Virus record (IMG/VR): IMGVR_UViG_3300022890_000019
Span: 10,218-74,217 of that record
DNA: 64,000 nucleotides
Strand: one strand, 5' to 3'
Source of the DNA: a virus
Part shown: positions 2,998 to 33,505 of the stretch, one piece after another
How positions within the stretch are numbered: position 1 is the first letter of the stretch
Layout of the letters: each line of letters opens with the position of its first letter
Translations under genes and position numbers: made by a program
Notes under the pieces: model-generated
Databases searched by the model: none
Told to the model about the DNA's origin: nothing
The model's input: the letters and a program-made list of their open reading frames with translations, nothing else

Positions 2998-3000
2998 ACA

Positions 3001-3288: not shown

Positions 3289-3357
3289 ATACGAAATCCA
3301 ATACTATTTAGAATGTAAGAATGATACTTGGAAAGAGTATAGAGATAATCAAAAATT

Positions 3358-14286: not shown

Positions 14287-14302
14287 AATAGTGTAATTTA
14301 TA

Positions 14303-14333
14303 CAAATTTAATATATCATTTATTCTTTGTCAA
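14303..14333 (-). promoter_or_regulatory. Bacteroidota-type promoter for hub/fibre genes
   Basis: Minus strand TTG-N20-TAAATTTG in the 47-bp gap after the giant gene. Confidence 0.7.
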
Positions 14334-17300
14334 CTAATAATCTGATTCTTTAACATCTCTGATTCCTAAACTAGGGAATGGGTCACTAATAGATCCTATA
14401 GCTGTTCTGTATTTTAGAATGTCTTTTACCTTCTTAGGACCAAAAGTAGCATCAACAATATCTAGTAAAATAGAAGTTACAGGGAAAGGATTTAAGAACC
14501 AGTCATAAGAAATCATCATCATATTAAGATCTTTGTACATCCAGTTTAACTTGATAAGCTTTTTGTCATTATCTTTTCCTACCACAGCTCCACTAAGAGC
14601 AATTAAGAGAGAAAATACAGCAGTCTTAATAACAGTACGTGCTAAATTAAGTCTTCTCATAGGAGTCTGATTTTTCCACCAGGAGTCTAAGCCTTCATTC
14701 CTCATATTGGCTATTCCCTGTACAGCACCTACGAAGCTCTGCCATGCACCTTCTATCTCTATCCAATCTCTCTGAGTAACCCACTCACCATTTTCTAACT
14801 GTATTGCTTTAAAGCCTGCTCCAAAAGAAGTTTTTCTTGGAGATGCAAAAAGACCTGCATTCCATATTTTATCTGCTGAGAATACTCTAAACTGAGAAGC
14901 AGCAGCACCTAGATAGTCATTACCTAATAACCACTTAGCAGTATTGTCCATACTACCTATAATAAATTTATCTCCATACCATTTTAATTGTTCTGAAGCT
15001 AGGGTATGATCATGTCCTCGATCTACTTTGGTAGCATCTTCTTCCATAAGACCCTGATCCTTTAACCTATTTTTAAGACCGTTTGGACCTTCTACTAGTA
15101 CCTCTTGCTCTTTAGTCTGGGTACCATCTTCATTATAATATCTTTCGTCTTTTTTGATATCATACTGTATGTCTCCTTTTTCATTAAGAGAATAAGCATC
15201 CCAACTACCCTCATGAATCATCCATCCTGCCATACCTACTAATCTAGCTTCTGCATCAGAAGCCCAGTTAGTGATATGAGCCCACTGATCATTAAGAATA
15301 TTCCCTTTGTTAGCTACATTAAGCCATGGACTATCTATAAGGTCTCTTTCTGTACGATTTACTAACTGGAACATAGCACCGAGTCTTCTAGCTTTTTTGA
15401 AGTTAGTAGCTACTTCATATCTTGCTTTATTAACATCTCCTGTAGTAGGCAGATAGATTTTTTGTGATTCATCTAATCCTATATTTGCAATAGAGGCAGC
15501 TAAAGCATTTATCTGTTCACTCATTTCATTCCATATACCTGACTTAGCACCTATAGTCCACTTGTATCCTAGAGAGATCATACTGAATGCACTAAGAGTA
15601 GCTCTAGCAAATGTTTTAACATCTACTGTTACCCCACCGGGAAGAGTGATCTTAACAGAAGTATCTTCATTCTTTTTCATAGCTAACCTATTGCTAAACA
15701 TTTCAGCAAATCTTCTGTTGTTTACCATGAAGTCTTTAGAGTTCTTAGTAGATTCAAAGTATCCATAGACAGCATCTACATCATTAAAAGCAGGCATATA
15801 TCTATTTTCATATTCTTCTGTGCGGATCCCTTCCAATGTGTAATAGTTAATTATCTTCTCTAGGTTCGTACTTGCTAGCATATTTTTAGATAAGTCTGCT
15901 ACCGTTAAGCCATTCTTAGTATATAATAGTCCTGCTTGTTCATAAAGCTTATCCTTACTATTCATCTGTGAAGCAAAAACATTACTGATAGTATTCATAC
16001 CGCTAGTGAAAGCCATACGACTTTTATCATTTAAGTTGTCATCGATAAACTCATCATAGTTAACAAACCTTTGACCCATCCTATCCCAGGCAGCTTTGAA
16101 GTTCCCTGATAACAATGTTTCATTTAGTCCTTTAGAGATAATAACCATAGTTCCCTTTTCTACAGATTCATCAAACTCTTTAGCAACCTCTGCCTTACTG
16201 ATCTTTGAATTACCGAAAACATCTTTACCTTTTATATCACTTGTTCTACTATGATACCAGTTATCGATAGTCCTCTGACGGAATGTCTTCCATACTACCT
16301 CCATCAGTGCTTTGTCATCTTCATTATGCTTAGGATTATTAAAGTCTAATATAGGAAGCATTATAGGTACAGTCTCCCCTTTCTTATAGGTTTTAAGACC
16401 TACCTTCTGGTCTTTCTCAAGGGTAAGGGTAGTGTGCTTAAATAAATGCTTATAATAAACACTACCTTCATCTTTAATTAGTGTTTCAGCAGCTACCTGT
16501 GGATGTAAAGCAATATAATTTTTGGCTACTTTCTGTGCTTTATCATATATCTGATTATGTATCTTCATGTAACGATCTACGACTATAGAATTAACAAGTC
16601 TACCTTTAGATACTAGCATCTGTAAAAGATCATCTCTTACATTGTGGATAGGTACAAGATTCTTTTCGAACTTATTCATATCCTTGATAGAGTTTTTAAA
16701 GAAAACAGCTCCATAGCTTTCAAGTTCTAAGATACTCATAGAGACAAGAAGATCTTCATGATCTTTTTCTTTTTTATCTCTATTCCTGCCCCGTAAATCT
16801 TTCTGCAGTGCTCTTAATGCTTTTACCTGATCATGAACAGTAGTATTCCTATCCATAAATAGCGTTGAGAGGCTTTCTGCTCTATTGACATATCCATATC
16901 CATACTTGCGATATCCTTCATCATCCATAACTTTCTTTAGATACATCTGGAACCTTCTTACGAAAGACTGTTCGTATTTTGTACTATCAGAGATTTTCTT
17001 GTCTGTGAATATATCTTTAACATCATCATTAACTAGGTTATTTAACCATTCATCTTGCTGAGACAGTACATTCATATTGCTAAACATATCCTGGATGTCT
17101 AACATCATATAAGACTTAACATTGCTAGGTTGTATTTCTAGCACTCCCATGCCTCTGAACTTAACCTTACCACCACTAGCCTTCATCATGTTCATTATAG
17201 ACATAGAGAGGATAGCTCTTCTGATATCGTATGCTGAGTTACTCCAAGTACCACCAGCTTCTATAAACTTATTATCTGTCATCATAGTACCTAACAGTCT

Positions 17301-20300
17301 ATTCCTATTTGCCGGTGCAAAAGGAACTTTGTCTTGTAAGGAGAAGGTAGTAACATCAAGGATAGAGAGATCTACAGTACCATCGTCTTCGATACCGTGA
17401 ATGGTAATCAGTGGATCAAAGCCTTCAAAGGCGCTATTGTATAATGCCCTGACAGCCTTAATATCGCTGTTTTTAAGGTCACTATACTTCATTACAGTTT
17501 CAATCTTATCACCCAGGCCAAGATAGAAAGCCATATCTGTTACAGCTTTCTCGCTATATACATTACCAAAGGCCTTTTTAGCTGCATCATAGATAGTTTC
17601 CTTCTGGTCTATCACTAGGTTAATAAAGTTCTGTACATTGTTCTTATAGGATACCTCGAAAGAGTTAATATGAGGAACAATATCTTTTTCTATAGCAGCC
17701 TCTAGCTGTTCATCAGTCATCGTATTAGGATAGGCAAAAGTCTTATCTAAGCTATGGAAGACATAGTTACCTGCATCATCGGTATAGCTCTTCATCTTAT
17801 GAAGTGTCGTTCTTACAAATTCTTCTGTGTTAAGCTCACCCATAGTATGTCCATACTCTGAATAAGGATTCACTATAGCTGCAAAGTCCTTAGTGGTATT
17901 TACTCCTTCTTGTAGGTAGAACTTATTACCTTCTTCTAGGGACCTGTAAGCGTCATCTAGCTGCCATATGTCATAGTTTACTGGATCAGTACCGTACGTT
18001 TGCCTACCAGTCTCGAGGAGGAAGTCTGAGACCTTACCTTCAGTGAATATCTTATCTAGCTTCTTCCTAAAAGGAAAGAATAGATCATGAAGTGAATTGT
18101 TAACAAGTGTGTTGATAGAGGTTGCTATATTCAGTAAAGCATCTAAAGAGGTATTATCAGTAAAAAAGTCTCTGATACTCTCTTTAAGCATCACCTTCAT
18201 AGCTGTATTCCTGTTGATTATCTGTGAAAGGATGGCCAGTACCTCATGAGTTACATCACCATCGGTAGTAGGTCTATTGTGTTCTTTAAGCTTTCTTACT
18301 ACATGGTCACGGATAGGTTCTATCAGCTTATCTCCATTGTTAGCAGAGTCTATGATAGTGTTCTTAATAGTATTCCAGGTAGCAGGATCATTCATTATCA
18401 TTATCCCATTCCTGAAATGCTGAAACTCATGGACAGGCATAGTAAAAGAGAACTTCTCTACATTCATATGTATACCATCACCGTCAAACATTCCAGAGGC
18501 TCCTTTTAAAGACTCAGTAGTACCTTCTGTAATAGGTACTCCTGTTACTTTTTCCTTTAAAGCATCCATCCACCGTTGTGCTGCCTTAGTTGACAGTCTA
18601 CCTAGACTATGCTTTTTAAAGTCTATCATAGTATAGCGAGTCATAGACCCTTCTTTGCCTACATACTTGCTTAAAGCACTCATAGACTTGTTGACAAACT
18701 TCTGTGCTTCTTCGGATCCTTCTATCTCTCTTACTAGTTCACCTTCTACAGTAGCTATAAACTCACTGTCTCCTTTCTTAATTTTATACTGTGCTTTTTG
18801 ATTCTTCTCTTCCTGCTGTTTAGCTATCTTAATCTGATAGTTTTCCTTAGCTTGCTCGATCTGTTCTTCTGAGAGATCAGCTTTCACCCAAACAACGTTC
18901 GTTGGCTGTATTCTGAGGGCTCTGATCAACGTTCCCTCCTCAGTGGTATATAACCCTTCCAGACGGTCTACGTTCATATTAGCGTAGCTGTGTCCTCTGA
19001 CATATGATAATGGTACCTGCTGGTTGTCTAATAGAAGATCTAGCTTCTCAGGACTCATCTTTACTATCTCCATAGTAGAAGTCATATCCTTGACAGTATC
19101 AAAGCCACCTCTCTCACCGATTAGATATTCATAGTCGTACTTCTCAAAAGCATTACCGAAGAGATCCTGATCATTTTTTATCCTGGCAGTGAAGTTAGCA
19201 GTAAACCTCTTAAAGTCTTTACGCTTCATAATAGTCTCAGGGAAGATACCTAGGTCTCTAGCCTTACGGGTGAGGAAACTGCTCATACCCTCTTTATGCT
19301 GTACCCACTTGGTAAACCTCTCTACAAGGTCGGTAAGCCTATTCATATTCTTAGGCATCCACTCCATCTCTGCCTTAGTCATCTCAAGACTCATAGCTAA
19401 GCCATCTTCACCATAGTAGTGTTCTGTACCCATGATTTCATTGATACTTCCTTTACGGTAGTTAAAGCCTGTATTGATAAGCTGGTTGACCCTGTATAGC
19501 TCTTTTAGGTATTTAGGTAACCTGTCGAATTCTATAGCTAGATCTGATAGCTGCTGCTCGCTGAGGTTAAAGGCATCTGCTAGCCTGATATATTCTTTCC
19601 CCTCTTGTCCTTGCAGAACAAGGTTAGCGATAAACTTATTATTCTTGATAGCATCATGAAACTCATTGGTATAGTCTATCCCTATAGCCTGTATAGCTCT
19701 GGAAGCATCACCGAAGTTCATAGTAGACATACTCCTGATAAGGTCATGAAACTGTGGGAACTGCCTTACAAAGAGTGTCCTTCCTTCTACATTATCTAGT
19801 GCTACCGTCTCGTAGTTAGACTCAGGAGAAAAATAGTTACCATCAATATCCTGAAGAGGTACTGCGATGTTAAACTTCCTTCCAGTAAATGATCTCTTAA
19901 AAAACTTATCCAGGAACAACTGCTGCATACCAGACTTAAAAGTATAAAACTGCTTTGCATAGTTAAAGACATTGTTAAGTTGTCCTTTCAAATAGTTAGG
20001 AGCAAAATAATCCCAGATCACTTTGTTGTCTTCCAGGAAAGTCTTAGAAGCCACCTCTCTCTGGTTGTTGATCTCATTATAATAATCTTTAAAGTGTGTG
20101 CGTCTTACAAATTCAGAGATGTTAATAGCCTTGGCTATTTCTAGCTCATAGTCCAATAATTTCTCTGCTTCATTGTTAGCTTCATCAAATTGTGAAGATA
20201 TAAGCCTGGAATATTTATTATCCAGTTTCTTAAAGTTCTCTATATGACTCTCTGCATTCCACTCAGCACCTTGCATAAACTCCTCGTAAGTCATCCCTAG

Positions 20301-23300
20301 ATACTTAGAAAGCTCGTTCTCTGCCTTATAGAGGTCAAAGTCCATTACTGGTACTCCATTGCGTAAAGCTACAAAGCGAGTCATCCTACGTAAAGCTTCT
20401 GCTGTGAAGACGTATTTTTTAAGCTCTGTAAGGACCTGATAGTTTTCTCTTCTCTCCTGCTCACTCTTTATAGCACGTATGTCTCTGGACAGCTCTTCTA
20501 TAAGATTCATGTCCGGTGGAGTGTTCTCATCTACCTTTTCAGCTTCAGTAAGTTTTGTCTCTAAAGCTTCTCTCTTAGAAAGTAAAGATTTGTTGCTGTC
20601 AGTATTTTTACTTCTCTCGTTAAGGACCATCTCTTCAGCTACCAGTTCATATACCTGTTCTGCCTCAAAAACTTCTAAGCTGTTCTGGAAACTTCTTTGT
20701 GTATAGATCTTCTCTACTACAGGATGTTCGAAGAATGTAGCTATCTCCTGGTTGCTCTTACCGTCAGCAGTCATTACAGCTACCACGGGAACAGCTTCAG
20801 CAGTGATACCTAGCCTACCTAATACAAGCTCTTTGGCATTATCTAAGGCTACCTGCATCCAATTACCTAAATTGATAAATGGAGATGTGCTCCACTGCTC
20901 TTCGTCAAACAGTGAGAGGTTTCTTAACCCCGGAGCATTATTTCTGATAAAGGTCTTTCCTAGCTGTGCCAGGTAAGAGACTCCTGAGAGAGACATGGCC
21001 AAGATACCTATAGCCTTGTTACCTTCACTAGCAGTTTGACTACTATCAAGGTAAGAGGCAAAATCATTATCTCTTCCATACTTTCTTTTCTTTTTATCTA
21101 CAAGTTCCTTTAAGCCTTTTACATCTGACTTAATAAATATCTTACTAGCATTAGCAGGGTCCTGGTATACATTGTCTATCTCATCAAGGATAGCGTTACG
21201 AGCACCACCCTCTCCTTCGATAGCTAACTTACCATCAGCAAACTCTCTCATATATACCGTTAACTGGTCAATATCCTGGTCAGCATTGTTACGGATGTTC
21301 ATCTCTACAGGAACATAAGCTGTGTTACCATTGTCATTGATAAAAGCTGTGATCTCTAATATAGAAGCACTGCCTAACCTATCTGCAGGTACACGACCTG
21401 AATATACTTTTAGAGACTCTTTGAAGTTTCTAAAGTAAGACAGTGGATCTTCTGGACTGTTTCTAAATATAGGAGAACTCTCTTTGTTGATAACAGAGCC
21501 ACCTTCAGCTAAAGTCTGTAAGAAGTCTATAAACTCATCATCGTTTAGGTTACGTACATTCCAGGATAACACTTCTCCATTAGCTTCTGCTTCTATAGTA
21601 AAGACATCGTTAAGAGTTTCATCATTCTTTATACCAAACTCTCTCATGTAAGGATAAGGCATTACCGTCTGTCCTCTCTGAATACCTTCATTGCCAGCAG
21701 TCATATCTTTTAAGTCTGCAGGAGTATATCCGAGATCTATAAGGTCTTCTACTGACTCTATAGTGCTATTGGTAAACCGTTCTATCTCTTGTAGAGTATA
21801 AGGAATCCCATTCTCATAATAAAGCTGATAACCATAGGAAGAAGACTGGTTTACACGTAAGCCTTTAAAAGAGGTACGTATAGCATTGTCGTTTACAAAA
21901 CTCCTATAAGCCTGTTTTAACTTCTGTGCTACTTCAGGAGAATGTATAATGCCAGGGTTGTTGATAACATTGTTGATAAGGTCAGTGTATCCTGTGATAA
22001 GACCCATCTGACGTATAGCCTGTAAGCCTCTCTCTCTGAGGAAAGAAACAAACTTCTCTATATCCTGTTCGTTAAAGGCTGCTTCTGGTTTGTTAGCCTC
22101 TATACCCATCAAAGTATTTATCCTAGCCTTACTCATAGTATAAAGCTCTTCTTGTAATATCCTTATCCTCTTACCTCTGTTTAGGTTACTAGCACCTATG
22201 CCCATATAGGATAGATTCTGTGAAGGAGGAGCCTGTCTTTGTACCTTGTTAGTCTCTTGGTATGGATTTAACACTATACGCAGAGAAGAGTTGTCAAAAT
22301 CTCTTGCTATGAGATCTTTCTCTTCAGAAGAGTAAGGATCATACATGTTCACATAGTTGACAGTCTGCTTCTCTATAGTCTCATCAGCAAATCCTCTTGG
22401 AGTACGAGCCTTTATCTCTTCAGAGAAGTTACTCTCTTCTACGATCCAGTCTCTTAGGTTCCTAAATGCTTTCTGTGCATCCCTGCTACCAGCATGACCT
22501 GTAGCTTCATAAAGTTCTTTGAATTTAGCATAGAGGTCTATATCATAGTTCTCAAAGTCTTTTCTCATAACCTTTGTGACATGATCTAATAGATCTTTTT
22601 GCATCTGACGTACAGGAAGTGTCTGTTCGTAGGTCTGAGAGCTGAAAAAATTCATAGACTCTTTTTCCTGGTACTGATCACCATACTGAAAATCCATACG
22701 ATTATCCAGAGTCTTGACTCTTGTCTTGTCAATAGGACCATACTGATAATCTATACCACTTTTCTCCATAAAAGATTCCCAGAGCATAAACCCATTCACA
22801 CCACCGTCATCATTTTCTATCCATTCACCGGTCGTTGCATCTTCTTTGTACATGGTACTAACCATTATCTCCTTACCCATAGCAGGGAGACCATATTTAG
22901 TATTTACTACAAGCTTACTACCACCAGTTGCTTTAGATCCTGATCTCTTAACCTTATCAGCAGCATCTTTATGGTTCTGTACATTACCAAAGGCAAACTC
23001 TCCTACCGCATTGTTAACGATATGGTATGCATAGAAGTGAGCTTTGTAGACAGGATTCCATATTATATTCTCTGTAGTAGTTGTGACTGTGATAGGAGTC
23101 TCGGAAACACCATAGCGATTTGCTGAAATAGACATCTCTTCCATGTGCTCTTCCATCTTCTCTGTATAGAAGTAACCCATCTTACCTTCTATAAGGGTTT
23201 TTACGTCGTTTTGTTGACGATATCCTATTTGTGATAGCTTACCTGCATATTCCCTATATAGTGGAAAGAACAGCTTATCTCTTTCAGTCTTGTTTAGTAA

Positions 23301-26300: not shown

Positions 26301-29300
26301 TTCGTGCTTAGGAGTAGTGTATTTAATACCTTTTTTATACAAGGCTAGTTTTATCCTACCATTATACATTAACCCGTGGATGTCCATACCGTCAAACTGA
26401 AGGTTAGGAGTAATATCATTCTTTACCTGTTCCCAAATAGAAGGGTGAGCTATCTTTTCGAATAGTTCTCTTACCGCAGCTACAGTTACAGTACGTGGCT
26501 CTATGTTATCAGTCTTTATTTCAAACCTAGGTCTCTTAGCACCTTTCTTACTTGCAGGTCCATCTGAACTTTTAGGAGTCTTATTAGTAATTTCTTCGTT
26601 AACGTCAACAAGTCCATCAGTAGATATATTTACATATGGAAAGTGTATAGCCTCTGCACTGGTAACGATATTCTCCATCTCACTAGGTGATAACTCTCTG
26701 GTACTTGTGCTTAGGTCTATAGTATACGGCTGGTATAGTTTGTCTATCTGTAGTCTTAGGTTCGCTGCCTCACCGGTAACGTCATCTTTATATAGCTCTG
26801 TCACCTGGTCCAGGAATGCATCTAGTACGTCAAGCTTTATCTGTGCATCGGTACGTACATTGTCTGAATCTAAAAGGAAGATATCTCTGTTTACCCTTAC
26901 ATTGACTCTACCACCTACCTTTTCAAAGTAGGTACCAAAGAAGTCGTTAAGAGCTTTGTTATTAGTAATGATGCTTAGGTTTTGTGCGAAGACATTCTTC
27001 CAGAACATCCTGTTAAGTTCACTACCAAAGAAGCTATCCTGTTCAGAGGCACGGATATCTTTTAGGCTCTGCTTGTCCTCTTTGATCTTCTCATGCATCC
27101 TCTTAGAATTCATCTTCCCAAGGTTGTTAGTCTTAAAGATCACATAGGCCTCGTTAGCAGTACTGTTTACATCACCTTCAGAGAACTTATACTTTAAGAG
27201 TAGTCCTACCCTACCACTACCATAGAATGTCTGTACTATCTTATCAGAGAAAGTAACCATTTGTCCGGAAAGTGTATTCTCTATATGAGCCATAAACTCA
27301 GCAAAAGTTCTAAGAGGACCTTTGTTATAGATTACATTACCCTCGTTGATATCATTTTCTAGTATGATCTCTCCAAAGCTGTACTCATCGGTATTAGAGT
27401 CATATCCTTTCTTTCTCAGAGAAGCCTTATAGTAGTTAACCTCTTTGTTAGCTGTATGGTGTTCTGGGCTTAGCTCCATGCCTGTATAGCTACTGTCAAA
27501 GCCTTCAGATATCTGTCGCTTTATATTCTCTAAGGGCTGTGAGTAATCTCTTATCTGCTGCTTAGCGTATCCTGCATCAGTCTCCCCCAGAGAAGCTATA
27601 TATTGATTTCTTTGTAAGATCTCTCTTTCATTACTTGTAAGAGACTCTTCGTTGATAGCACTAACCTTAATAGCTAGCACGTTGTCAAAGTTCTTCCAGG
27701 TACCAGTATTTCTATCTTCCATCAATGCTGACTTTAGATATACTAGCTCAGAAGTTACCTTTCTCTTATAGACCATGTTTAAGATAGACACTCTATCCTT
27801 ACGTAGCTGATCCATATTTACATCAGCTGACGAAGTGTTAAAGACACTATAGATAGTACCCCAAAGCTTGTTACCGTTAAGCCACGCCTTAGCTTGTCCT
27901 GTGAAGAACGTCTTACCACTCTCTATGTCATCAAGGTCAGTAGTCTCTTTAGGGCCACTGCGAAGGGTATACTCTTTCTCAAAAGTGTTAAGATCTATCT
28001 GCTTGCCACCGAGGTATATTTCATACTCTACCACACCATCAGTAGTTTTCTCTATAATAGAATCTATGATATAGAAGTTTCCTGTAGAGACTTCATCAGC
28101 TACAGCACCTTTAACGATGCTTGGCTTTCCTGGGTACTCAGTAAGATACTTGTTAGTAGTATATCCGGGAGTAGGTGCAGGAGTCTTGACTATAGGATCC
28201 AATATTCCTAGAGCTACCTGTGACTCTTTACCAAAAGGTTCTGCTAAAGTCTTGGTAAGCTCATTATAAGCTTTATATTTCTGTCCTGTAGCAAAAGAGT
28301 CTGCTGTCAGGTCTTTCTGGTTCGTTACACTCTGGGTAATCTTAAAGAAGGCACCAGAATCATCTCCTTTGTTGATAGTATAGATACCGTTCTTACGGAA
28401 CTTGTGAAGGATAGGAGTAGCTATCTTAGTCTTTACCTCTTTAGGTTTCTCCTGTGGCTTGATAGCTGACTCTATACCTATGTTCTTTAGATACTCATTC
28501 ATATCATTATAGATATCAGAAGTATCAAGTACCTCTTGCTGACCATCTATCCACCATGAAGGCCTCTGTGTAAGATTTAACCCTTCTGAGCCTACCAGAC
28601 CCATAAAGCGAGAAGCTCTCCCTACAGCTGTATAAGCACTGTTAGAAGCTACAAATTCTTTTAACTCTTTACCATTGTATTTATATCCCCAGCTATTGAG
28701 GTTTACTGCCATGTATACTTCATCTTTACGAAGACCTTGGATGCTTGGAATCTTCCTAGGCATCACATTGGTTGCAGGATCAGACATCAACACATATACC
28801 TGTCCCTGGAATTCTGTCTTTAGGTTACCATGCTTGTCAAAGAGCTTTTCAACTATCTTCCTAGTTTCCTCTTTGGTGTTAGGATCTTTTAGGAGTGCAT
28901 CTATCTGTTCTGAGTTTAAGAAGACAAGAGCACTGCTTACACTCTCTGGCCTGGACAGTGCATCACTGATAACACTATCTACAGTATTATAATATTTTCC
29001 TCCCTCTCTTCTAGTTATCCCTACTGCTTCATATTCGTTGACATACACTTCAGGATAACCCATAGAGTTATTGTCTAGTCTGTTCCTAAACGCTTCTGCT
29101 AGTCTTTCGATAACAGGATTGCGAGTGGTGAACTTAAACATCACCGGGAACGTACGAGCACCCGTCTTCTGTGCATAGGAGATATTGTTCTTAGCATCAG
29201 GAGGCATCATCTGTGAAGCATCACCGAGCCATATGATCTGAAAGCTAGGATCGGTAGTATCTTCATTATAGTTCTTATTGATAACTTGTAGGTTGTCTTT

Positions 29301-32300
29301 ACTAAGCAGAGAAGCCTCATCGACTATCATACCTTCATACTGATTAGGGTTTTGTACCTTACCACCTATGAAGTCTGCCATAGAGATATTATCAAATACC
29401 TGATCAATACCTTCTAAAGAACTGCTTAGCGTATTTAGTACCTCCTGGGTATGGTGTACCAATAAATATTTTCTTTTAGGATCTTTTTTAAGCTGGTCTC
29501 TGATAGCTATAGCTTCAGGAATCATATGCTGACTCTTACCACCTCCAAAGTCTCCTCTCATAAAGATAGAGTTAGCCATAAAGATATCTTCTTTCTCTGA
29601 CACCTTCTTTATATGTTCACTGTTGTTAAATTCTACCTCCCTGACGATCTTGAGCACATCAGCATTATGTCCTAGCAGTTGGTTTACCACCATATTCACA
29701 CCCATCATCTGTTCGAAGGTAGAGATATTCTGAGCCGTTACATTGACTTTAGACCTTGCACCCTGAAGAGTATTGATGCTCTCTCCATTAAGAGCCATGA
29801 GGAAGTTTACCAGGTAGGTATATCCTTCATGAGTCTTATATACATCATTGACACTATTTACCTTTAACAGATTATAGTAATAGTTAAGAGTCTCTCCTAC
29901 CTTAGTATAGTCAGGAGCATTGAAGTAAGCTGAGTTGTATCTGAACTTCTTAGCAGCAAGTAGCCTGTTTATAAAGTCATAGTTCACTAGCTGGTCACTG
30001 GCACCCTGCATCTTTACAAAAATGTCATGTAGCACCTTCTCACTGTTTAACAAGTCTGCCATCTCCTCTACACCCGGAGGAGTGTTTTTATCCTTTTGTT
30101 CCTGGGTAAGGTCTTTAACATCTTCTAACAGTTTCTTAATATCAGGAACGAGCTCTTCCATCATGGTAGGATCCATCTCATAGAAGAGAGTCACTACCTG
30201 CTTCTGAGCATTGATATGTCCTTGACGTAGCTTGATCTGGAAAAACTTACTAGCTTCTTTAGCTAGCTGTACACTGTTACCCATAGTATCGAGATCTATC
30301 AACATCTCACTTACTTGCTCTCTGCTATTCCTTAGCTCTGACTCACTGACATAATATTTATATGCAGGTAGCTCTTTATTCTTTGAAGGTTCTAGCTTAG
30401 GATGATCTGATCCTTTAGAGAAGAAGAACATTCCTTTATCAGCAGTCTTCAGAGCATCTCTAACAGCATTGATAGACTTAATCAAAGAGGCTGCAGTAGA
30501 CGGGTTAAGGTCAGTACTTGTCTGCTCCCTGAAGTTATCCACCCTAGCCCTCATCTCTTCGAGAAACATCATAGGTACATTGTCATCATTGCTTAGCTGT
30601 CTTATCTTCTCTGTATTCTCATCTACAAAAGCATTCTCTGATAGCTGTGTAATAGCATCTATAGTTTCCCTGGTAGTATTAAGCTGATCTTTTACATCTT
30701 CATTGGTAGGATCAGTAGCATATTCATCGTTAAGTTCTTTCTCAAGTTGTTCTAGCTGCTTCTGATATTTAGCACTTTCTCTTATTGCCTGGATCTGCTC
30801 TTCATTACCCTGTGCAGGGATACCAAAAGTAATTTCTTTAGAGAGAGCTATTATTGCCTTGCAGACACCCTCAAACCCCTTCATAAGGTCTTTCTTTGAC
30901 TTTAGCTTAGAAGCTTCACCTACGGTAGTAAATAGGTCTTTGTGGGTAACTACAGTCTCATTGTTACTCTTTACAATCTTCTCTTGCTTTTCTATTTCCT
31001 GAGTCTGGTATTCTGTGAGCTTCTGTGAGAACTCTGTAGCTTTCTCATAGGTATCTAAATGATCCAGGATATTCCTTTTGTATTTAGTCTGGTACTTCTC
31101 TGACTTCCGAAACTTATCGGTAAGCTCTGTACCTTCATTCTTAAAATGTTCATCAGAGACATTCTTAGCATAGAGTAAAGCACTATACTTCTCTCTGATA
31201 GCTTCATTATATTTCTTACTGTATTTTGTGTCTGCACCTTCAGGAACAGTATACTCTTGTATAGCTTGAGAGACAACACCTAGCTGCTCATCGATCTTAG
31301 CTATCTGTGCAGCATCTTCCTCGGTAGCCTCTTCCTTATTCTCTAATGCTAGCTTCTGCTCAGCAAGACCTTTATAGGATACGATAAGATCAGTAAGTTC
31401 TTTCTGCATGAGCTTACTCCTACCTATAGCCTCAAGTACTATTGGGTTGTCAATACCAAAATCTTTAACGATACCTTCAAACATATCCATAGACTGCATC
31501 ATACCCTGATATGCAACATCATTCATAGAACCATCAACACTCTCAGGATTTTTTATTTCTCCTTCAGTAGAGATGTAATTTGGACCTAAAGACTCTTTGT
31601 TATATAGATCTTGAGTAGCCTTTCTTAGCTTATCCATCTCACCAGTTACACCATAATAACCCATAGTATAATCTGCCATAGGATTCTTGCCGGCACCCAT
31701 AGTGAGTCCCATTGTAATACCACCCATAAATCCTGCTACAGTAGACTCTAGTACATTATCTCCTATCCTATTAGATAAGTTCTCTAAGTAACTCTTATTA
31801 GCATCTACAGGACCAAATAATCCTTTTCCTGGTAATAATCCATTCTCTCCATCATATCTTATCTGATCATGGAATGTCTGCATAGAGTTCTCTATCATCT
31901 GCTGAAAGAATTCTTCTGTTCCTTCTTCACCACCTGCTAAGATAGTTCTAGCAAATATAGTTTTCCCCTCAGAAATAGCTTTGATAAAGCCGTGCAACCA
32001 TAATCTTTTTTGTGTCTTTGTACCTTCTTTAAGATTCTTTATACCAAATTTTTTCATTACCTTTTTAGCTGCAGTTAACCTTGCTGCCTTATCTACAAAA
32101 TAACCTGATCCTCTAGCAATAACATTTCTGCCTATAAATCCTTCTGTAAATGTCTCAGAAGCTACCTGTATAGGATACATCCAAGCGATATCAGCTTCCT
32201 CTATCCCCATATCTCTAGCAGTCTGTACAAAGTGATGGCCACTCATTAATCCAAAGACTCCAAAAGATGTCCAGGTAGAAGCAAAAGATTTAAACCCATT

Positions 32301-33479
32301 AAAATTTCTTAATCCCTGTGCTAGTCCTTTTTGTATTACTAATTGGGCAATTACACTACCCATTACTGAAGAGAATCCTTCCCAACTATTAAACATTCCC
32401 TGATTAGCACGTAGAGATTTTCCAAACAGTGCTTTATTCTGAATAGTAGTTTCTCTTTTAGATCTATCAGCCCATTTATTTAATCCATAATAATCACCAC
32501 CAAAAAATAGTTCATTTAGATAATTACTACCCATTTCATCAGCAGTCTCAAAAGTAGCAGCACCACTAGAAAACATATTATATGCTTGAAATATTCCATC
32601 TTTTATAGCATTCCTTTGAAAAGGAGCAGGCCCCATAGCACTAACAATAGAACTTCGAGTGACTCTAGGATCTTCTACTGGTACTTCTAACATAGTAGGT
32701 GTACCATCTGGGCCCGGAGCATATATTTTAATAAAATCATTCTTATCTGTAAGAAATAGAGGAATAGTTTTATCAGAATCATCAGGATCTTCTACATTAA
32801 CATCTATATCACCATATGTACCTTTCTCTTGAAGAGCATTCATATATGCTACATAACCATCCTTTTGTTCCTGGGTCCTCATCTTAGGATCATAAACAAC
32901 ATCATCTTTAGTTCCAACAAAGAAATTATCAAGAGCAGCTAACCCTCTTAATACAGTATGTACTCTATCAGATACGGTAGGTTTCTTTTTTATTATCTTT
33001 TTGCCAAATCTGTCAATATAATATCCTTTAGCAAATACTTCTTCTTGAGGACTAAGTAGATTCTGTCCAAACTGATTAACACCTATAGTTGGAGAGATAT
33101 AAGTTTGCTCTAAAGAATTTCTATCAATAGACTTAATTCCCATCTCTTGTTTTAAGAAGGTATCATTACCATAAGCAATCCATGGAGTAACAAAGTGATC
33201 AATCCCATCTTGATGATCTAAATAACCCGTAGAAGCCATATCGTAGATCTTATCAAAGTTCTTTGGATCTATCATAGGAGTATCTACAGTATACTTTTCT
33301 CTTGCCTTTTCTCTATCCCAGAGAGTCACTACTGCATCATTCTCCTTTAGTGATTGTCTTATTTGATCTGCTGACCATTGAAAGGCATACATTGGGAAAT
33401 AATCAAGTGTTGCTTTTGGTGTTGCTTCTTCTTCTCCACCATCACCTATACTATTAACATTTTCAGTATCGTTATTCAT
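14334..33479 (-). CDS. giant (6381 aa) virion polyvalent protein: SF1 helicase + two zincin motifs + crAss-type two-barrel RNA polymerase
   Basis: RNAP motifs: DKVKRSG, ENDDGG, GRVP, NNADQDIDQL (DxDxD, ~21261-21290), KAIGILA, DNAKELVLG. Helicase motifs: GDFGGGKS, IVDEAS, LGDASQ, SIQGL, YTAVGRA (~28600-29560). HEFFH at ~26300 and HEFQH at ~18420. Hydrophobic Gly-rich segments lie near both termini. Confidence 0.85.
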   Translation of the reverse strand: MNNDTENVNSIGDGGEEEATPKATLDYFPMYAFQWSADQIRQSLKENDAVVTLWDREKAREKYTVDTPMIDPKNFDKIYDMASTGYLDHQDGIDHFVTPWIAYGNDTFLKQEMGIKSIDRNSLEQTYISPTIGVNQFGQNLLSPQEEVFAKGYYIDRFGKKIIKKKPTVSDRVHTVLRGLAALDNFFVGTKDDVVYDPKMRTQEQKDGYVAYMNALQEKGTYGDIDVNVEDPDDSDKTIPLFLTDKNDFIKIYAPGPDGTPTMLEVPVEDPRVTRSSIVSAMGPAPFQRNAIKDGIFQAYNMFSSGAATFETADEMGSNYLNELFFGGDYYGLNKWADRSKRETTIQNKALFGKSLRANQGMFNSWEGFSSVMGSVIAQLVIQKGLAQGLRNFNGFKSFASTWTSFGVFGLMSGHHFVQTARDMGIEEADIAWMYPIQVASETFTEGFIGRNVIARGSGYFVDKAARLTAAKKVMKKFGIKNLKEGTKTQKRLWLHGFIKAISEGKTIFARTILAGGEEGTEEFFQQMIENSMQTFHDQIRYDGENGLLPGKGLFGPVDANKSYLENLSNRIGDNVLESTVAGFMGGITMGLTMGAGKNPMADYTMGYYGVTGEMDKLRKATQDLYNKESLGPNYISTEGEIKNPESVDGSMNDVAYQGMMQSMDMFEGIVKDFGIDNPIVLEAIGRSKLMQKELTDLIVSYKGLAEQKLALENKEEATEEDAAQIAKIDEQLGVVSQAIQEYTVPEGADTKYSKKYNEAIREKYSALLYAKNVSDEHFKNEGTELTDKFRKSEKYQTKYKRNILDHLDTYEKATEFSQKLTEYQTQEIEKQEKIVKSNNETVVTHKDLFTTVGEASKLKSKKDLMKGFEGVCKAIIALSKEITFGIPAQGNEEQIQAIRESAKYQKQLEQLEKELNDEYATDPTNEDVKDQLNTTRETIDAITQLSENAFVDENTEKIRQLSNDDNVPMMFLEEMRARVDNFREQTSTDLNPSTAASLIKSINAVRDALKTADKGMFFFSKGSDHPKLEPSKNKELPAYKYYVSESELRNSREQVSEMLIDLDTMGNSVQLAKEASKFFQIKLRQGHINAQKQVVTLFYEMDPTMMEELVPDIKKLLEDVKDLTQEQKDKNTPPGVEEMADLLNSEKVLHDIFVKMQGASDQLVNYDFINRLLAAKKFRYNSAYFNAPDYTKVGETLNYYYNLLKVNSVNDVYKTHEGYTYLVNFLMALNGESINTLQGARSKVNVTAQNISTFEQMMGVNMVVNQLLGHNADVLKIVREVEFNNSEHIKKVSEKEDIFMANSIFMRGDFGGGKSQHMIPEAIAIRDQLKKDPKRKYLLVHHTQEVLNTLSSSLEGIDQVFDNISMADFIGGKVQNPNQYEGMIVDEASLLSKDNLQVINKNYNEDTTDPSFQIIWLGDASQMMPPDAKNNISYAQKTGARTFPVMFKFTTRNPVIERLAEAFRNRLDNNSMGYPEVYVNEYEAVGITRREGGKYYNTVDSVISDALSRPESVSSALVFLNSEQIDALLKDPNTKEETRKIVEKLFDKHGNLKTEFQGQVYVLMSDPATNVMPRKIPSIQGLRKDEVYMAVNLNSWGYKYNGKELKEFVASNSAYTAVGRASRFMGLVGSEGLNLTQRPSWWIDGQQEVLDTSDIYNDMNEYLKNIGIESAIKPQEKPKEVKTKIATPILHKFRKNGIYTINKGDDSGAFFKITQSVTNQKDLTADSFATGQKYKAYNELTKTLAEPFGKESQVALGILDPIVKTPAPTPGYTTNKYLTEYPGKPSIVKGAVADEVSTGNFYIIDSIIEKTTDGVVEYEIYLGGKQIDLNTFEKEYTLRSGPKETTDLDDIESGKTFFTGQAKAWLNGNKLWGTIYSVFNTSSADVNMDQLRKDRVSILNMVYKRKVTSELVYLKSALMEDRNTGTWKNFDNVLAIKVSAINEESLTSNEREILQRNQYIASLGETDAGYAKQQIRDYSQPLENIKRQISEGFDSSYTGMELSPEHHTANKEVNYYKASLRKKGYDSNTDEYSFGEIILENDINEGNVIYNKGPLRTFAEFMAHIENTLSGQMVTFSDKIVQTFYGSGRVGLLLKYKFSEGDVNSTANEAYVIFKTNNLGKMNSKRMHEKIKEDKQSLKDIRASEQDSFFGSELNRMFWKNVFAQNLSIITNNKALNDFFGTYFEKVGGRVNVRVNRDIFLLDSDNVRTDAQIKLDVLDAFLDQVTELYKDDVTGEAANLRLQIDKLYQPYTIDLSTSTRELSPSEMENIVTSAEAIHFPYVNISTDGLVDVNEEITNKTPKSSDGPASKKGAKRPRFEIKTDNIEPRTVTVAAVRELFEKIAHPSIWEQVKNDITPNLQFDGMDIHGLMYNGRIKLALYKKGIKYTTPKHEFFHLVFDYLIDENSRQRLYNATKELLGLPNATEDYLTEWMARDYGYSGLNLDSVKPKQGLWSRFVDFVNKLFNGYTKRVNTLDELFYKMDHGYYRNVQPVHDGGRDIVRMEGESELDEYQADNFNHKAEDGFAKDDTPNTDYIEIFNNQYKVFGNDINKYLNAVADAVIQYTFFSSDLSVDKVVPMTEAIKDVQKEYEEYGNEFADELTSVGIPYSQITDDDAKKLSIVERRNLGWLRLANQEIFTSFIVRLMPGYNPETGRFYKWNKQSTQYNRAGDDANPDQTKSDFMKMQINATRFHQYYYSSNGRLVRNEWDTKDAYAFVNSKDLEKSLKDAGMRVANRLLKDPSLNPVEAFTQELYNLATEAGLDTYKGSNILSFYHRFFEAFTGKPSLSNRINSIDELIKSDGRSNVSQLKLDIQSDLSDFINSLISYNISFMRPKSSFIESKKSGDETVYNIVNSFENTFDNKKKEIIDGISQTLYDKDTRSFREHVKDRLGSGKNAEFEVTSSGISYVKNKQKIKVISYTDGKISFTEAFHDNDSRDKILTYIKNFIGLKNVTDQTIYNMYNNMHHEGARVELNKRTPEYNLENTNTFLAETFMNMFWSASSNLTMLDKIETINKGILRKLDNKAINEEEAKKQEAKQIKELSVPFNQEMSSFRKKMNITDSTIDGFEKVFAGNNVETIKSDVKIYKPVDYYNAFGVIAALEVYNKGIDSDLFSNRPDGTKAWGFKMKSWVFDMFGDGSAWLTDKINNMPKEILDNSIWKNTKGKWTNWIADPKGIRIRSLTIGNGLRVGNRGIVKPGSKDLATINLANFIEGIRKSTDKLQDIFLTMTNIADKELTYITNTDFSFGKGRRLINIDRDSNGNITSANVDEKMISHGIAIEFERANREMQMSQGKFAREIPANNLTKVFPRELWSVKDLKNFNPKSLESFSKTLTDEQAIDLMRSGLRKNKDYFLDGNTVTLGNSILFKVPGYEAIYNHDNYQKFSNNGERFALLNKTERDKLFFPLYREYAGKLSQIGYRQQNDVKTLIEGKMGYFYTEKMEEHMEEMSISANRYGVSETPITVTTTTENIIWNPVYKAHFYAYHIVNNAVGEFAFGNVQNHKDAADKVKRSGSKATGGSKLVVNTKYGLPAMGKEIMVSTMYKEDATTGEWIENDDGGVNGFMLWESFMEKSGIDYQYGPIDKTRVKTLDNRMDFQYGDQYQEKESMNFFSSQTYEQTLPVRQMQKDLLDHVTKVMRKDFENYDIDLYAKFKELYEATGHAGSRDAQKAFRNLRDWIVEESNFSEEIKARTPRGFADETIEKQTVNYVNMYDPYSSEEKDLIARDFDNSSLRIVLNPYQETNKVQRQAPPSQNLSYMGIGASNLNRGKRIRILQEELYTMSKARINTLMGIEANKPEAAFNEQDIEKFVSFLRERGLQAIRQMGLITGYTDLINNVINNPGIIHSPEVAQKLKQAYRSFVNDNAIRTSFKGLRVNQSSSYGYQLYYENGIPYTLQEIERFTNSTIESVEDLIDLGYTPADLKDMTAGNEGIQRGQTVMPYPYMREFGIKNDETLNDVFTIEAEANGEVLSWNVRNLNDDEFIDFLQTLAEGGSVINKESSPIFRNSPEDPLSYFRNFKESLKVYSGRVPADRLGSASILEITAFINDNGNTAYVPVEMNIRNNADQDIDQLTVYMREFADGKLAIEGEGGARNAILDEIDNVYQDPANASKIFIKSDVKGLKELVDKKKRKYGRDNDFASYLDSSQTASEGNKAIGILAMSLSGVSYLAQLGKTFIRNNAPGLRNLSLFDEEQWSTSPFINLGNWMQVALDNAKELVLGRLGITAEAVPVVAVMTADGKSNQEIATFFEHPVVEKIYTQRSFQNSLEVFEAEQVYELVAEEMVLNERSKNTDSNKSLLSKREALETKLTEAEKVDENTPPDMNLIEELSRDIRAIKSEQERRENYQVLTELKKYVFTAEALRRMTRFVALRNGVPVMDFDLYKAENELSKYLGMTYEEFMQGAEWNAESHIENFKKLDNKYSRLISSQFDEANNEAEKLLDYELEIAKAINISEFVRRTHFKDYYNEINNQREVASKTFLEDNKVIWDYFAPNYLKGQLNNVFNYAKQFYTFKSGMQQLFLDKFFKRSFTGRKFNIAVPLQDIDGNYFSPESNYETVALDNVEGRTLFVRQFPQFHDLIRSMSTMNFGDASRAIQAIGIDYTNEFHDAIKNNKFIANLVLQGQEGKEYIRLADAFNLSEQQLSDLAIEFDRLPKYLKELYRVNQLINTGFNYRKGSINEIMGTEHYYGEDGLAMSLEMTKAEMEWMPKNMNRLTDLVERFTKWVQHKEGMSSFLTRKARDLGIFPETIMKRKDFKRFTANFTARIKNDQDLFGNAFEKYDYEYLIGERGGFDTVKDMTSTMEIVKMSPEKLDLLLDNQQVPLSYVRGHSYANMNVDRLEGLYTTEEGTLIRALRIQPTNVVWVKADLSEEQIEQAKENYQIKIAKQQEEKNQKAQYKIKKGDSEFIATVEGELVREIEGSEEAQKFVNKSMSALSKYVGKEGSMTRYTMIDFKKHSLGRLSTKAAQRWMDALKEKVTGVPITEGTTESLKGASGMFDGDGIHMNVEKFSFTMPVHEFQHFRNGIMIMNDPATWNTIKNTIIDSANNGDKLIEPIRDHVVRKLKEHNRPTTDGDVTHEVLAILSQIINRNTAMKVMLKESIRDFFTDNTSLDALLNIATSINTLVNNSLHDLFFPFRKKLDKIFTEGKVSDFLLETGRQTYGTDPVNYDIWQLDDAYRSLEEGNKFYLQEGVNTTKDFAAIVNPYSEYGHTMGELNTEEFVRTTLHKMKSYTDDAGNYVFHSLDKTFAYPNTMTDEQLEAAIEKDIVPHINSFEVSYKNNVQNFINLVIDQKETIYDAAKKAFGNVYSEKAVTDMAFYLGLGDKIETVMKYSDLKNSDIKAVRALYNSAFEGFDPLITIHGIEDDGTVDLSILDVTTFSLQDKVPFAPANRNRLLGTMMTDNKFIEAGGTWSNSAYDIRRAILSMSIMNMMKASGGKVKFRGMGVLEIQPSNVKSYMMLDIQDMFSNMNVLSQQDEWLNNLVNDDVKDIFTDKKISDSTKYEQSFVRRFQMYLKKVMDDEGYRKYGYGYVNRAESLSTLFMDRNTTVHDQVKALRALQKDLRGRNRDKKEKDHEDLLVSMSILELESYGAVFFKNSIKDMNKFEKNLVPIHNVRDDLLQMLVSKGRLVNSIVVDRYMKIHNQIYDKAQKVAKNYIALHPQVAAETLIKDEGSVYYKHLFKHTTLTLEKDQKVGLKTYKKGETVPIMLPILDFNNPKHNEDDKALMEVVWKTFRQRTIDNWYHSRTSDIKGKDVFGNSKISKAEVAKEFDESVEKGTMVIISKGLNETLLSGNFKAAWDRMGQRFVNYDEFIDDNLNDKSRMAFTSGMNTISNVFASQMNSKDKLYEQAGLLYTKNGLTVADLSKNMLASTNLEKIINYYTLEGIRTEEYENRYMPAFNDVDAVYGYFESTKNSKDFMVNNRRFAEMFSNRLAMKKNEDTSVKITLPGGVTVDVKTFARATLSAFSMISLGYKWTIGAKSGIWNEMSEQINALAASIANIGLDESQKIYLPTTGDVNKARYEVATNFKKARRLGAMFQLVNRTERDLIDSPWLNVANKGNILNDQWAHITNWASDAEARLVGMAGWMIHEGSWDAYSLNEKGDIQYDIKKDERYYNEDGTQTKEQEVLVEGPNGLKNRLKDQGLMEEDATKVDRGHDHTLASEQLKWYGDKFIIGSMDNTAKWLLGNDYLGAAASQFRVFSADKIWNAGLFASPRKTSFGAGFKAIQLENGEWVTQRDWIEIEGAWQSFVGAVQGIANMRNEGLDSWWKNQTPMRRLNLARTVIKTAVFSLLIALSGAVVGKDNDKKLIKLNWMYKDLNMMMISYDWFLNPFPVTSILLDIVDATFGPKKVKDILKYRTAIGSISDPFPSLGIRDVKESDY

Positions 33480-33505
33480 TGCGTTATATTTGGATAATTA
33501 ACAAT

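Follow-up and report, generated by a model that had tools for sequence, protein, structure and literature searches.

A giant putative virion protein of a salt-lake phage with a predicted SF1B helicase and a two-barrel RNA polymerase in one chain

Main features of the giant protein

A single open reading frame (ORF), found in a stretch of 64,000 nucleotides of viral DNA that was analysed as a whole (the window), probably encodes, as one fused protein, the "transcription block" that a deep-branching crAss-like phage would package in its virion; a helicase within this block would supply the RNA polymerase with single-stranded DNA template. The chain consists, in order, of an N-terminal region, an SF1B helicase, an HExxH domain resembling that of crAss001 gp47, a polymerase of the phi14:2 gp66 type, and a module of the gp65/gp49 type. 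The features referred to below are:

14334..33479, minus strand: the whole ORF, encoding a putative fused virion cargo / RNA polymerase polyvalent protein of 6,381 aa (about 728 kDa), from ATG to stop
31560..32732, minus strand: N-terminal conserved region, aa 250-640, with Gly/Ala-rich amphipathic segments on either side of the acidic motif GGEEGTEEFF
28380..29882, minus strand: SF1B (RecD/Pif1/Dda-type) helicase module, aa 1200-1700, predicted from ordered motifs and a family profile
25980..26642, minus strand: first HExxH domain, aa 2280-2500; HEFFH occupies 2392-96 and, together with the conserved Glu of EWMA (2431), forms a gluzincin-like signature
20040..23042, minus strand: predicted core of the two-barrel RNA polymerase, aa 3480-4480, corresponding to residues 871-1813 of phi14:2 gp66
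21267..21281, minus strand: putative catalytic metal-binding motif DQDID, aa 4067-4071, aligned with gp66 DFDID 1361-65
14337..18512, minus strand: C-terminal module, aa 4990-6381, which corresponds to phi14:2 gp65 and crAss001 gp49 and opens with the second HExxH
14577..14633, minus strand: the sole strongly hydrophobic helix, aa 6283-6301, VIKTAVFSLLIALSGAVVG, with a Kyte-Doolittle 19-residue mean of 2.02
38694..42665, minus strand: crassvirus muzzle protein gene (PF25731 crAss_MUZ, E 5e-33), two to three genes upstream of the giant ORF

Integrity of the reading frame

An earlier note on this DNA had described a single uninterrupted ORF of 19.1 kb and had advised that mis-assembly be looked for; the contigs of four sequencing runs, which were used for this check in place of raw reads, are free of insertions and deletions over 14334-33479. 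In runs X1 and X7, Logan contigs of 61 kb each cover positions 14000-33800 with 0 differences and 0 gaps, and contig pieces of runs X14 and X15 span most of the giant ORF, also without indels; X1 and X7 are possible sources of this DNA, whereas X14 and X15 are not flagged as such. The stretch is present in 24 salt-lake metagenome runs, and no RNA run is among the listed sequencing runs that carry it. The two other frames of the same strand contain 564 and 867 stops across the ORF, and the probability of 6,381 stop-free codons at its base composition is about 1e-212. It is extremely improbable that the long ORF is an artefact, either of mis-assembly or of sequencing errors that joined several genes: apart from two caveats (contigs stand in for raw reads, and X1 and X7 are possibly the source), nothing was found in favour of this, and it is opposed by the indel-free contigs, by the even GC content along the ORF, by more than 100 homologues of 5,000-7,400 aa that share the module order, and by the extension of the ORF beyond the 10-kb flank in 17 of 17 IMG/VR loci. 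Every motif quoted in the earlier note was located in the 6,381-aa translation (EEGTEEFFQQ at aa 518, GDFGGGKS at 1309, HEFFH at 2392, ADQDID at 4066, DNAKELVL at 4213 and HEFQH at 5017). The presence of two HExxH motifs is unlikely to be due to chance, because 0.08 are expected in the giant protein and only 6 of 5,000 shuffles contained two or more.

Gene context and comparison with known systems

The giant ORF lies downstream of the muzzle gene, as do the genes for packaged cargo in crassviruses, which agrees with its earlier description as a virion protein. Muzzle, portal, TerL and capsid protein genes are located upstream of it in the order known from phi14:2, with matches to the virion structural families phrog_6547, phrog_6681 and phrog_11589. 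The giant ORF is separated from the muzzle gene by two further genes, which occupy the position of the C1/C2 cargo genes of crAss001. Most portal matches obtained by tblastn, with an identity of about 22%, were to records of Crassvirales and to uncultured crAss-like ("cr") phages. Judged by its sequence, the source is a deep-branching salt-lake phage, distantly related to the crAss-like phages of the gut.

In phi14:2, the genes of gp67, gp66 and gp65 (PDB 6VR4 is gp66; Drobysheva et al.) follow the structural genes in the same order as the corresponding parts of the giant ORF; the polymerase core of the window superposes on gp66 871-1813 with the DxDID motifs aligned, and its C-terminal module matches gp65, including the HExxH region. 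However, the phi14:2 cargo consists of three proteins totalling 5,398 aa rather than a single chain of 6,381 aa, gp67 and gp66 lack an HExxH whereas the window has one upstream of the polymerase, and the part of the giant protein in the position of gp67 has no detectable similarity to it. Proteins gp65-67 were annotated from virion MS/MS, and by homology the protein of the window would likewise be located in the virion. Compared with crAss001, the first HExxH domain resembles gp47, the polymerase gp50 (hhalign probability 96.5%) and the C-terminal module gp49, with a muzzle gene nearby; unlike the window, crAss001 has gp47, gp50 and gp49 as three separate genes on two strands, and its gp49 is without the HExxH that the C-terminal module possesses. 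Mass spectrometry of crAss001 virions detected gp47/49/50 (Bayfield et al. 2023, PMC10172136).

Iyer et al. 2017 (PMC5512222) describe injected polyvalent proteins as combining polymerases and helicase-type ATPases with zincin peptidases, and those of the N4 type share with the protein of the window the character of a giant injected protein encoded among late virion genes, in which a polymerase is combined with a zincin-like metallopeptidase and other enzymes (PMC5512222). The polymerase of N4, however, is a T7-like single-subunit enzyme with a fold unrelated to that of the two-barrel enzyme of the window, and crAss-like phages are absent from the polyvalent-protein survey (PMC5512222).

RNA polymerase module

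The whole two-barrel RNA polymerase that had been read from the letters is contained in the chain: when structure and profile comparisons with phi14:2 gp66 were made, as the earlier note had proposed, a two-barrel match was found at 20040..23042. The AF2 model of aa 3480-4480 (pLDDT 76, pTM 0.74) has 6vr4_A (phi14:2 gp66) as its best match in Foldseek (E 4.3e-15, TMq 0.57), with QDE-1 next, and in VIA residues 11-1001 of the model superpose on gp66 871-1813 with a Z score of 16.2 and an rmsd of 3.8 A over 705 aligned residues; weaker VIA matches are QDE-1/RDR2 (Z about 12) and cellular beta-prime subunits (Z about 9). The hhalign comparison with gp66 (probability 96.5%, E 1e-9) spans gp66 1145-1699, including the bridge helix (1529-1559) and the trigger loop (1598-1636). 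The three aspartates aligned with DFDID, each of which is essential in gp66 (bioRxiv 10.1101/2020.03.07.982082), are invariant as D4067, D4069 and D4071 in alignments of 15 and of 11 sequences, and the LDNAKE of the window is aligned with VDNAKD of gp66, with D4213 and K4216 invariant. On the basis of the model, aa 3480-4480 is predicted to be a single-chain two-barrel RNA polymerase of the gp66/QDE-1 lineage, with two double-psi beta-barrels.

Helicase module

The SF1 helicase motif set proved to be intact, as had been claimed. The predicted helicase of aa 1200-1700 resembles RecD, RecD2, Dda and Pif1 in having motifs Q, I, II, III, V and VI in order: the Q motif EQ at 1256-57, Walker A from G1309 to GKS1316, Walker B DE at 1387-88, motif III GDxxQ at 1419-23, motif V QG at about 1581-82, and motif VI TAVGR, with the Arg finger, at 1617-21. 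Residues E1256, Q1257, G1309, G1314, K1315, D1387, E1388, D1420, Q1423, T1617 and R1621 are invariant in 15 full-length homologues. The family profile A4 matches RecD in the PDB (1w36_D, E 8e-13) with both RecA-like halves aligned, and further matches Pif1 (5e-7), RecD2 (3e-6) and Dda (5e-6), all of which assign aa 1200-1700 to SF1B by prediction from sequence. Both PF13604 and PF13245 are matched by 9 of 11 members of the helicase family, whereas aa 1200-1700 of the window itself reaches no Pfam threshold; this is read as divergence rather than loss, because the catalytic residues are kept. The domain thus differs from its SF1B relatives in being too divergent for Pfam, and also in being embedded in a 728-kDa cargo protein rather than encoded by a replication or repair gene.

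We found no counterpart of the helicase in the studied phages phi14:2 and crAss001. The helicase profile had no match in either genome, a weak result in that the search had no positive control, and the absence of a Walker A from phi14:2 gp65-67 and crAss001 gp45-50 points the same way. This bears on the suggestion, equivalent to the ATP-driven translocase of the earlier note, that the helicase is a motor of genome internalisation, situated at the channel and pulling in the remaining DNA, with no part in melting the template. SF1B enzymes are translocases of single-stranded DNA (compare the RecD, Dda and Pif1 matches), T7 and N4 are textbook cases of genome entry driven by enzymes, and the helicase is in the N-terminal third of the chain, which would leave first if ejection proceeds from N to C, an assumed direction. 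The entering DNA, however, is duplex, whereas SF1B motors travel on single strands; there is no transmembrane segment near the helicase and nothing that links the module to the membrane; and phi14:2 and crAss001 gave no match to the profile, with the reservation stated above. An internalisation motor is considered unlikely.

Distribution among relatives and prior description

Collinearity of the giant ORF extends to 14 giant homologues and to 17 IMG/VR loci. A survey for fusions of helicase and polymerase in a single ORF, which the earlier note had recommended, placed the helicase upstream of the polymerase in one chain in 113 of the 118 relatives of at least 4,000 aa, and all four modules were present in 74 of these 118 (clusters at 50% identity); the counts are from HMMER with --max, since default filters overlooked many helicase matches in proteins this large. 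Some relatives begin at the first HExxH domain, and relatives split the chain at module borders, which suggests that the modules may also work as separate proteins. The IMG/VR loci were reached with alignment A2, a scan of IMG/VR with the single protein having given no match. Three overlapping slices of the window's own sequence found nothing useful in Pfam, PHROGs or PDB sequences, the profiles A2, A5 and A6 had no meaningful match among PDB sequences, and blastn and tblastn searches with the polymerase region and two helicase regions found no match in 50,697 deposited phage genomes.

The survey also bears on whether the helicase and the HExxH domains are instead injected effectors, directed against defence systems, host DNA or proteins, or peptidoglycan, and are outside both the transcription machine and self-processing. 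Host-directed roles have been considered for injected polyvalent proteins (Iyer et al. 2017, PMC5512222), and the zincin of gp65 might digest peptidoglycan (Drobysheva et al., bioRxiv 10.1101/2020.03.07.982082), but the module order is fixed across homologues, and the join of helicase and polymerase is almost constant (113/118), whereas accessory weapons usually vary. Such constancy is more in keeping with a core function than with a weapon of that kind, and host-directed roles for these domains seem improbable.

The earlier note had allowed that the same architecture might already be widespread and described. It is indeed widespread, with 74 four-module clusters, and it is described in part: for some crAss-like phages, a fused "single huge polyprotein" that includes a zincin is already on record (bioRxiv 10.1101/2020.03.07.982082). 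The fused architecture is not rare in uncultured phages, and its class is already recognised. The "polyprotein" statement reportedly originates with Yutin et al. 2018 (Nat Microbiol). No published description of the helicase module was found in a check that covered sources other than the figures of Yutin et al. 2018. Beyond the helicase candidate, the protein of the window is a well-dissected member of a recognised class.

Proposed role of the helicase in early transcription

Some of the most abundant of all phages have the crass-type virion polymerase as their hallmark enzyme, and to our knowledge it is not known what opens the template for it in the cell. The helicase, fused in 113 of 118 giant relatives, is a concrete and testable candidate for this missing step, and if it does act in this way, the question of how the template becomes single-stranded would be answered for all crass-type polymerases. 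By analogy with the studied phages, the giant protein would be made late and packed into the capsid, and would be pushed into the host before the DNA or together with it, whereupon the polymerase would transcribe the early genes. The helicase may unwind the incoming duplex or the promoter and pass single-stranded template to the polymerase; it would thereby replace a factor that crassviruses without the helicase must obtain elsewhere, because this family of polymerases prefers single-stranded DNA. Transcription by gp66, the single studied example of the crass-type enzymes, is efficient on single-stranded and denatured DNA and poor on duplex DNA, and QDE-1 requires the helicase QDE-3 and RPA (bioRxiv 10.1101/2020.03.07.982082). 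A helicase fused to a QDE-1-like polymerase would mirror the pairing of QDE-1 with QDE-3 in eukaryotic RNA interference.

The connection of the helicase with transcription is a working idea, based on the co-occurrence of the two modules and on the biochemistry of a distant relative. The more specific proposal, that the injected polymerase brings its own unwinding motor, so that the SF1B helicase would open the duplex and early transcription would proceed without a host factor, is put forward tentatively and may well be incorrect. The fused and split forms of the same modules constitute natural test constructs, and the fission points among relatives show where the giants can be cut for expression or structural work.

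HExxH domains and C-terminal module

The two zincin motifs pointed out previously belong to domains that are both conserved, and each is homologous to an HExxH region of crassvirus cargo. In the first domain, H2392, E2393, H2396, E2431 and the A are invariant in 9 sequences, and hhalign aligns the domain with crAss001 gp47 2135-2295 (HEAFH at 2157) with a probability of 97.4% (E 1.4e-11); no PDB sequence matched its profile. The AF2 model of aa 2280-2700 has a pLDDT of 55, with a core of three successive strands, the HExxH helix and a further helix at pLDDT 70-84, and a VIA search with this low-confidence model reached a Z of 5.6 at best, without a clear match to a zincin. In the second motif, HEFQH at 5017-21 (nt 18417-18431), the H, E and H are at least 90% conserved. 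When the two domains were compared by hhalign, the strand and helix of the motif alone were aligned, with a probability of 27%.

The second motif opens the C-terminal module, of which aa 4960-5500 match gp65 238-337, including its HEIMH (hhalign probability 95%, E 3.8e-8), and A6 matches gp65 968-1301 (96.1%, E 3e-9); the probability of the match to crAss001 gp49 is 90.9%. Among 9 distinct IMG/VR loci, this module is fused in 5 and encoded by a separate downstream gene in 4; in the window it is fused. The gp65 protein of phi14:2 has been called zincin-like (bioRxiv 10.1101/2020.03.07.982082). Most likely, both HExxH domains are peptidases that depend on a metal; they could cleave the chain where modules meet, in the manner of the self-processing protease suggested in the earlier note, or packaging could require them. 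The 3,500-aa virion polymerase of N4 works uncleaved, so processing of the giant protein is not a given.

N-terminal part and hydrophobicity

The Gly-rich hydrophobic segments to which the earlier note had drawn attention are conserved, and in the acidic motif GGEEGTEEFF between them E519 is invariant and E522 almost invariant in the alignment of homologues; their hydrophobicity, however, is below transmembrane level on the Kyte-Doolittle scale, and the N-terminal part of the giant protein contains no segment of transmembrane grade by this measure. The idea of a membrane channel is not supported, both for this reason and because two separate genes occupy the position of the C1/C2 cargo genes of crAss001. 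Residues 250-640 have no match in Pfam, PHROG or the PDB, and no hhalign match to phi14:2 gp65-67 or crAss001 gp45-50. In comparisons with the same phage proteins, aa 1-1210, 1700-2300, 2700-3500 and 4480-4960 gave hhalign probabilities of at most 20%, and for the N-terminal 1,200 aa, aa 1700-2280 and aa 2500-3480 no relative outside the family was detectable in Pfam, PHROGs, PDB sequences or hhalign. In aa 640-1200, the "coiled region" of the earlier note, the residues E, K, Q, L and A make up 43% of the sequence, compared with 33% protein-wide.

Gene neighbourhood and integrity of the giant ORF

The giant ORF and the recognizable genes upstream of it share one strand:

14334-33479, minus strand: giant ORF, a single ATG-to-stop frame of 6,381 aa (~728 kDa)
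upstream of the giant ORF, minus strand: crassvirus muzzle protein (PF25731, E 5e-33)
upstream of the giant ORF, minus strand: ring protein (weak match)
upstream of the giant ORF, minus strand: major capsid protein (phrog_11589)
upstream of the giant ORF, minus strand: portal (phrog_6547)
54167-57418, upstream of the giant ORF, minus strand: large terminase (phrog_6681), containing an apparent intein

Cellulophaga phage phi14:2 shares this gene order (terminase, portal, capsid and, further on, muzzle, two or three mid-sized genes and the giant or cargo block). Because the window portal is only ~22% identical to Crassvirales portals, and the polymerase and helicase regions gave no tblastn match in 50,697 deposited phage genomes, the phage is placed, on these comparisons, as a deep-branching uncultured relative of crAss-like phages.

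The earlier note had described an uninterrupted 19.1-kb ORF, and this description was borne out. The remaining two frames of its strand are interrupted by 564 and 867 stops. Given the base composition, so long a frame would escape stops by chance with a probability of ~1e-212. GC content is even (0.35-0.40) across the ORF. The source record (74,217 nt, of which the window is 10218-74217) is without terminal repeats, and the window stretch was found in 24 salt-lake metagenome runs. Contigs (not raw reads) of runs X1 and X7, which may be the source, span 14000-33800 with 0 differences and 0 gaps, and contig pieces (again not raw reads) from two runs not suspected as the source, X14 and X15, have no indels in the giant ORF. 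Two variant contigs probably represent related strains of the lake: a low-depth X15 contig has eight transitions within 67 nt of the polymerase region (window 22425-22491), and an X1 contig of depth 2.8 carries 182 other letters in place of 1,184 nt in the N-terminal region (31539-32724).

Modules of the giant protein

Every motif named in the earlier note was recovered in the giant protein where that note had placed it. The giant protein searched alone against Pfam, PHROGs and PDB sequences gave no match; its domains were therefore identified through relatives, namely 14 collinear proteins (4,012-6,741 aa) from the first search and 17 IMG/VR loci from a pattern scan.

Aligned with ten IMG/VR relatives (alignment A3), aa 3480-4480 match residues 1145-1699 of the phi14:2 polymerase gp66 (probability 96.5%, E 1e-9), placing DQDID over DFDID and LDNAKE over VDNAKD, and D4067, D4069 and D4071 are invariant. 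The AlphaFold model of this region (pLDDT 76, pTM 0.74) has the gp66 structure, 6vr4_A, as its top PDB match (Foldseek E 4.3e-15). In VIA-align, model residues 11-1001 superpose on gp66 871-1813 (Z 16.2, rmsd 3.8 A, 705 residues), followed by the RNAi polymerases QDE-1 and RDR2 (Z ~12) and then by cellular beta-prime subunits (Z ~9). Agreement of sequence and structure on gp66 thus supplies the double-psi barrel hit whose lack the earlier note had named as grounds for rejecting its two-barrel RNA polymerase.

Upstream of the polymerase, the first HExxH domain (H2392, E2393, H2396 and, 35 residues on in EWMA, E2431, invariant in nine sequences) carries the gluzincin signature and matches the C-terminal residues 2135-2295 (HEAFH) of gp47 of Bacteroides phage crAss001 (probability 97.4%, E 1.4e-11). 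Downstream, the C-module (aa 4990-6381) matches phi14:2 gp65 968-1301 (probability 96.1%, E 3e-9) and crAss001 gp49 (probability 90.9%), and its start (HEFQH) matches gp65 238-337 (HEIMH; probability 95%). Both proposed zincin motifs are thus present and match the gp47 and gp65 regions; the zincin fold of the first was not confirmed, since its model reaches pLDDT 55 overall, with only a sheet-helix-helix core at 70-84, and structure search gave no clear match. By residue conservation, the two domains are putative metal sites. A subclade of giants (P0007, P0008, P0010 and P0015; loci L003 and L004) is without the first motif and retains the second. The hydrophobic C-terminus noted earlier corresponds to aa 6283-6301 in the C-module, the sole strongly hydrophobic helix of the protein.

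The N-terminal 1,200 aa, aa 1700-2280 and aa 2500-3480 have no relative outside the family among the cargo proteins of phi14:2 and crAss001. The N-terminal region contains a conserved acidic motif (E519 invariant) flanked by Gly-rich stretches, which are amphipathic; the earlier note described them as hydrophobic, and none reaches transmembrane hydrophobicity. The suggested membrane channel accordingly finds little support, and in the window two separate genes, flanked by the muzzle gene on one side and the giant ORF on the other, occupy the position of the crAss001 cargo genes C1 and C2.

From these module matches, the giant chain is read as a gp47-like protein, a gp66/gp50-like polymerase and a gp65/gp49-like protein joined in that order, with a helicase added to the first.

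A helicase of superfamily 1B

The SF1 helicase proposed earlier is present with its full motif set, invariant in 15 full-length homologues: E1256 and Q1257 (Q motif), G1309, G1314 and K1315 (Walker A), D1387 and E1388 (Walker B), D1420 and Q1423 (motif III), and T1617 and R1621 (motif VI). The helicase family profile (A4) matches E. coli RecD over both halves (E 8e-13), then Pif1, RecD2, Dda and nsp13, placing the module in SF1B. PF13604 and PF13245 are matched by 9 of 11 family members and not by the window's own copy, which is taken to have diverged while retaining its catalytic residues. No Walker A was found in phi14:2 gp65-67 or crAss001 gp45-50, nor did the helicase profile match either phage genome in a search run without a positive control.

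Frequency of the fusion and module borders

Searched with the polymerase profile by full HMMER, 1.84 billion cluster representatives yielded 1,444 proteins with E no higher than 1e-3, 236 of them at or below 1e-30. Modules were counted (HMMER --max) in 160 sequences, comprising the best 150 of this search and earlier finds, of which 118 are giants of at least 4,000 aa (median length 6,155 aa). Among these 118, the helicase lies upstream of the polymerase in 113, the first HExxH region is present in 112 (the motif itself in 102 of the 112), the C-module is fused in 81, and all four modules occur together in 74. The giant-type ORF extends beyond the 10-kb upstream flank in 17/17 IMG/VR loci and includes the helicase in 11/11 tested (10 distinct sequences and one near-duplicate). 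Thus the survey that the earlier note had proposed indicates that the helicase-polymerase fusion is widespread, and, as judged from these sequences, the norm across a large uncultured lineage. Of the 113 helicase-bearing proteins of at least 4,000 aa, 36 were missed as such under HMMER's default speed filters and were recovered by --max alone; domain surveys of giant proteins can therefore undercount.

The C-module was present in nine of ten distinct IMG/VR loci, fused in five and a separate downstream gene in four. It is fused in the window, L001, L003, L004, L012 and L013; L002, L005, L006-L010, L015, L016 and L017 form the contrasting group. In L006 and L016 the separate gene overlaps the giant ORF's stop, and in L002 and L005 it follows a gap of 1.8-2.6 kb. 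Relatives of 2,250-4,400 aa (P0073, P0160, P0158, P0070, P0030, P0126) open with the first HExxH domain and continue into the polymerase, so that a second fission point lies just upstream of that domain. In crAss001 its counterpart closes the preceding protein, gp47. Because relatives split at module borders, self-processing of the giant protein there is a plausible hypothesis. The giant polymerase of phage N4 works uncleaved.

Possible function and relation to known proteins

By homology to studied phages, the giant protein would be made late and packed in the capsid, and would be expelled partly unfolded through the tail, after which its polymerase module would transcribe early genes. Alone, gp66 makes good use of single-stranded and denatured DNA as transcription template and poor use of duplex, and QDE-1, its eukaryotic relative, requires a helicase and RPA (bioRxiv 10.1101/2020.03.07.982082). 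Since the helicase is also kept with its catalytic residues in 113 of the 118 giants, it is a good, if tentative, candidate for opening the template in cis; it may instead help the DNA enter or act against the host.

Overall, what the earlier note observed is confirmed and its interpretation finds partial support. Among the fused crass-type virion polymerase polyproteins, a class already known, the giant protein is a well-resolved case. Phi14:2 gp66 and the adjoining gp65 and gp67 are virion proteins (Drobysheva et al., bioRxiv 10.1101/2020.03.07.982082), and gp65 has a zincin-like protease domain (same source, citing Yutin et al. 2018); for some crAss-like phages that source notes a zincin-bearing "single huge polyprotein". 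Polymerase genes reaching ~6,000 aa have been reviewed, "several large, multidomain proteins", of which some include a PDDEXK nuclease, were reported by Yutin et al. 2021, and Iyer et al. 2017 (PMC5512222) laid out in general terms how injected polyvalent proteins join polymerases, zincins and other enzymes. The giant protein adds a helicase module that the studied phages lack; the literature searched, which lay outside Yutin et al. 2018, contains no mention or description of a helicase in the crass-type block.

Among the neighbouring genes, a 144-aa gene (35598-36032, minus strand) matches nothing in Pfam at E up to 1e-3. The terminase (1,083 aa) contains a ~400-aa insertion, with matches to LAGLIDADG_3 (E 2e-9) and, weakly, to intein splicing, that resembles an intein carrying a homing endonuclease; such inteins have been reported in other crAss-like phages.
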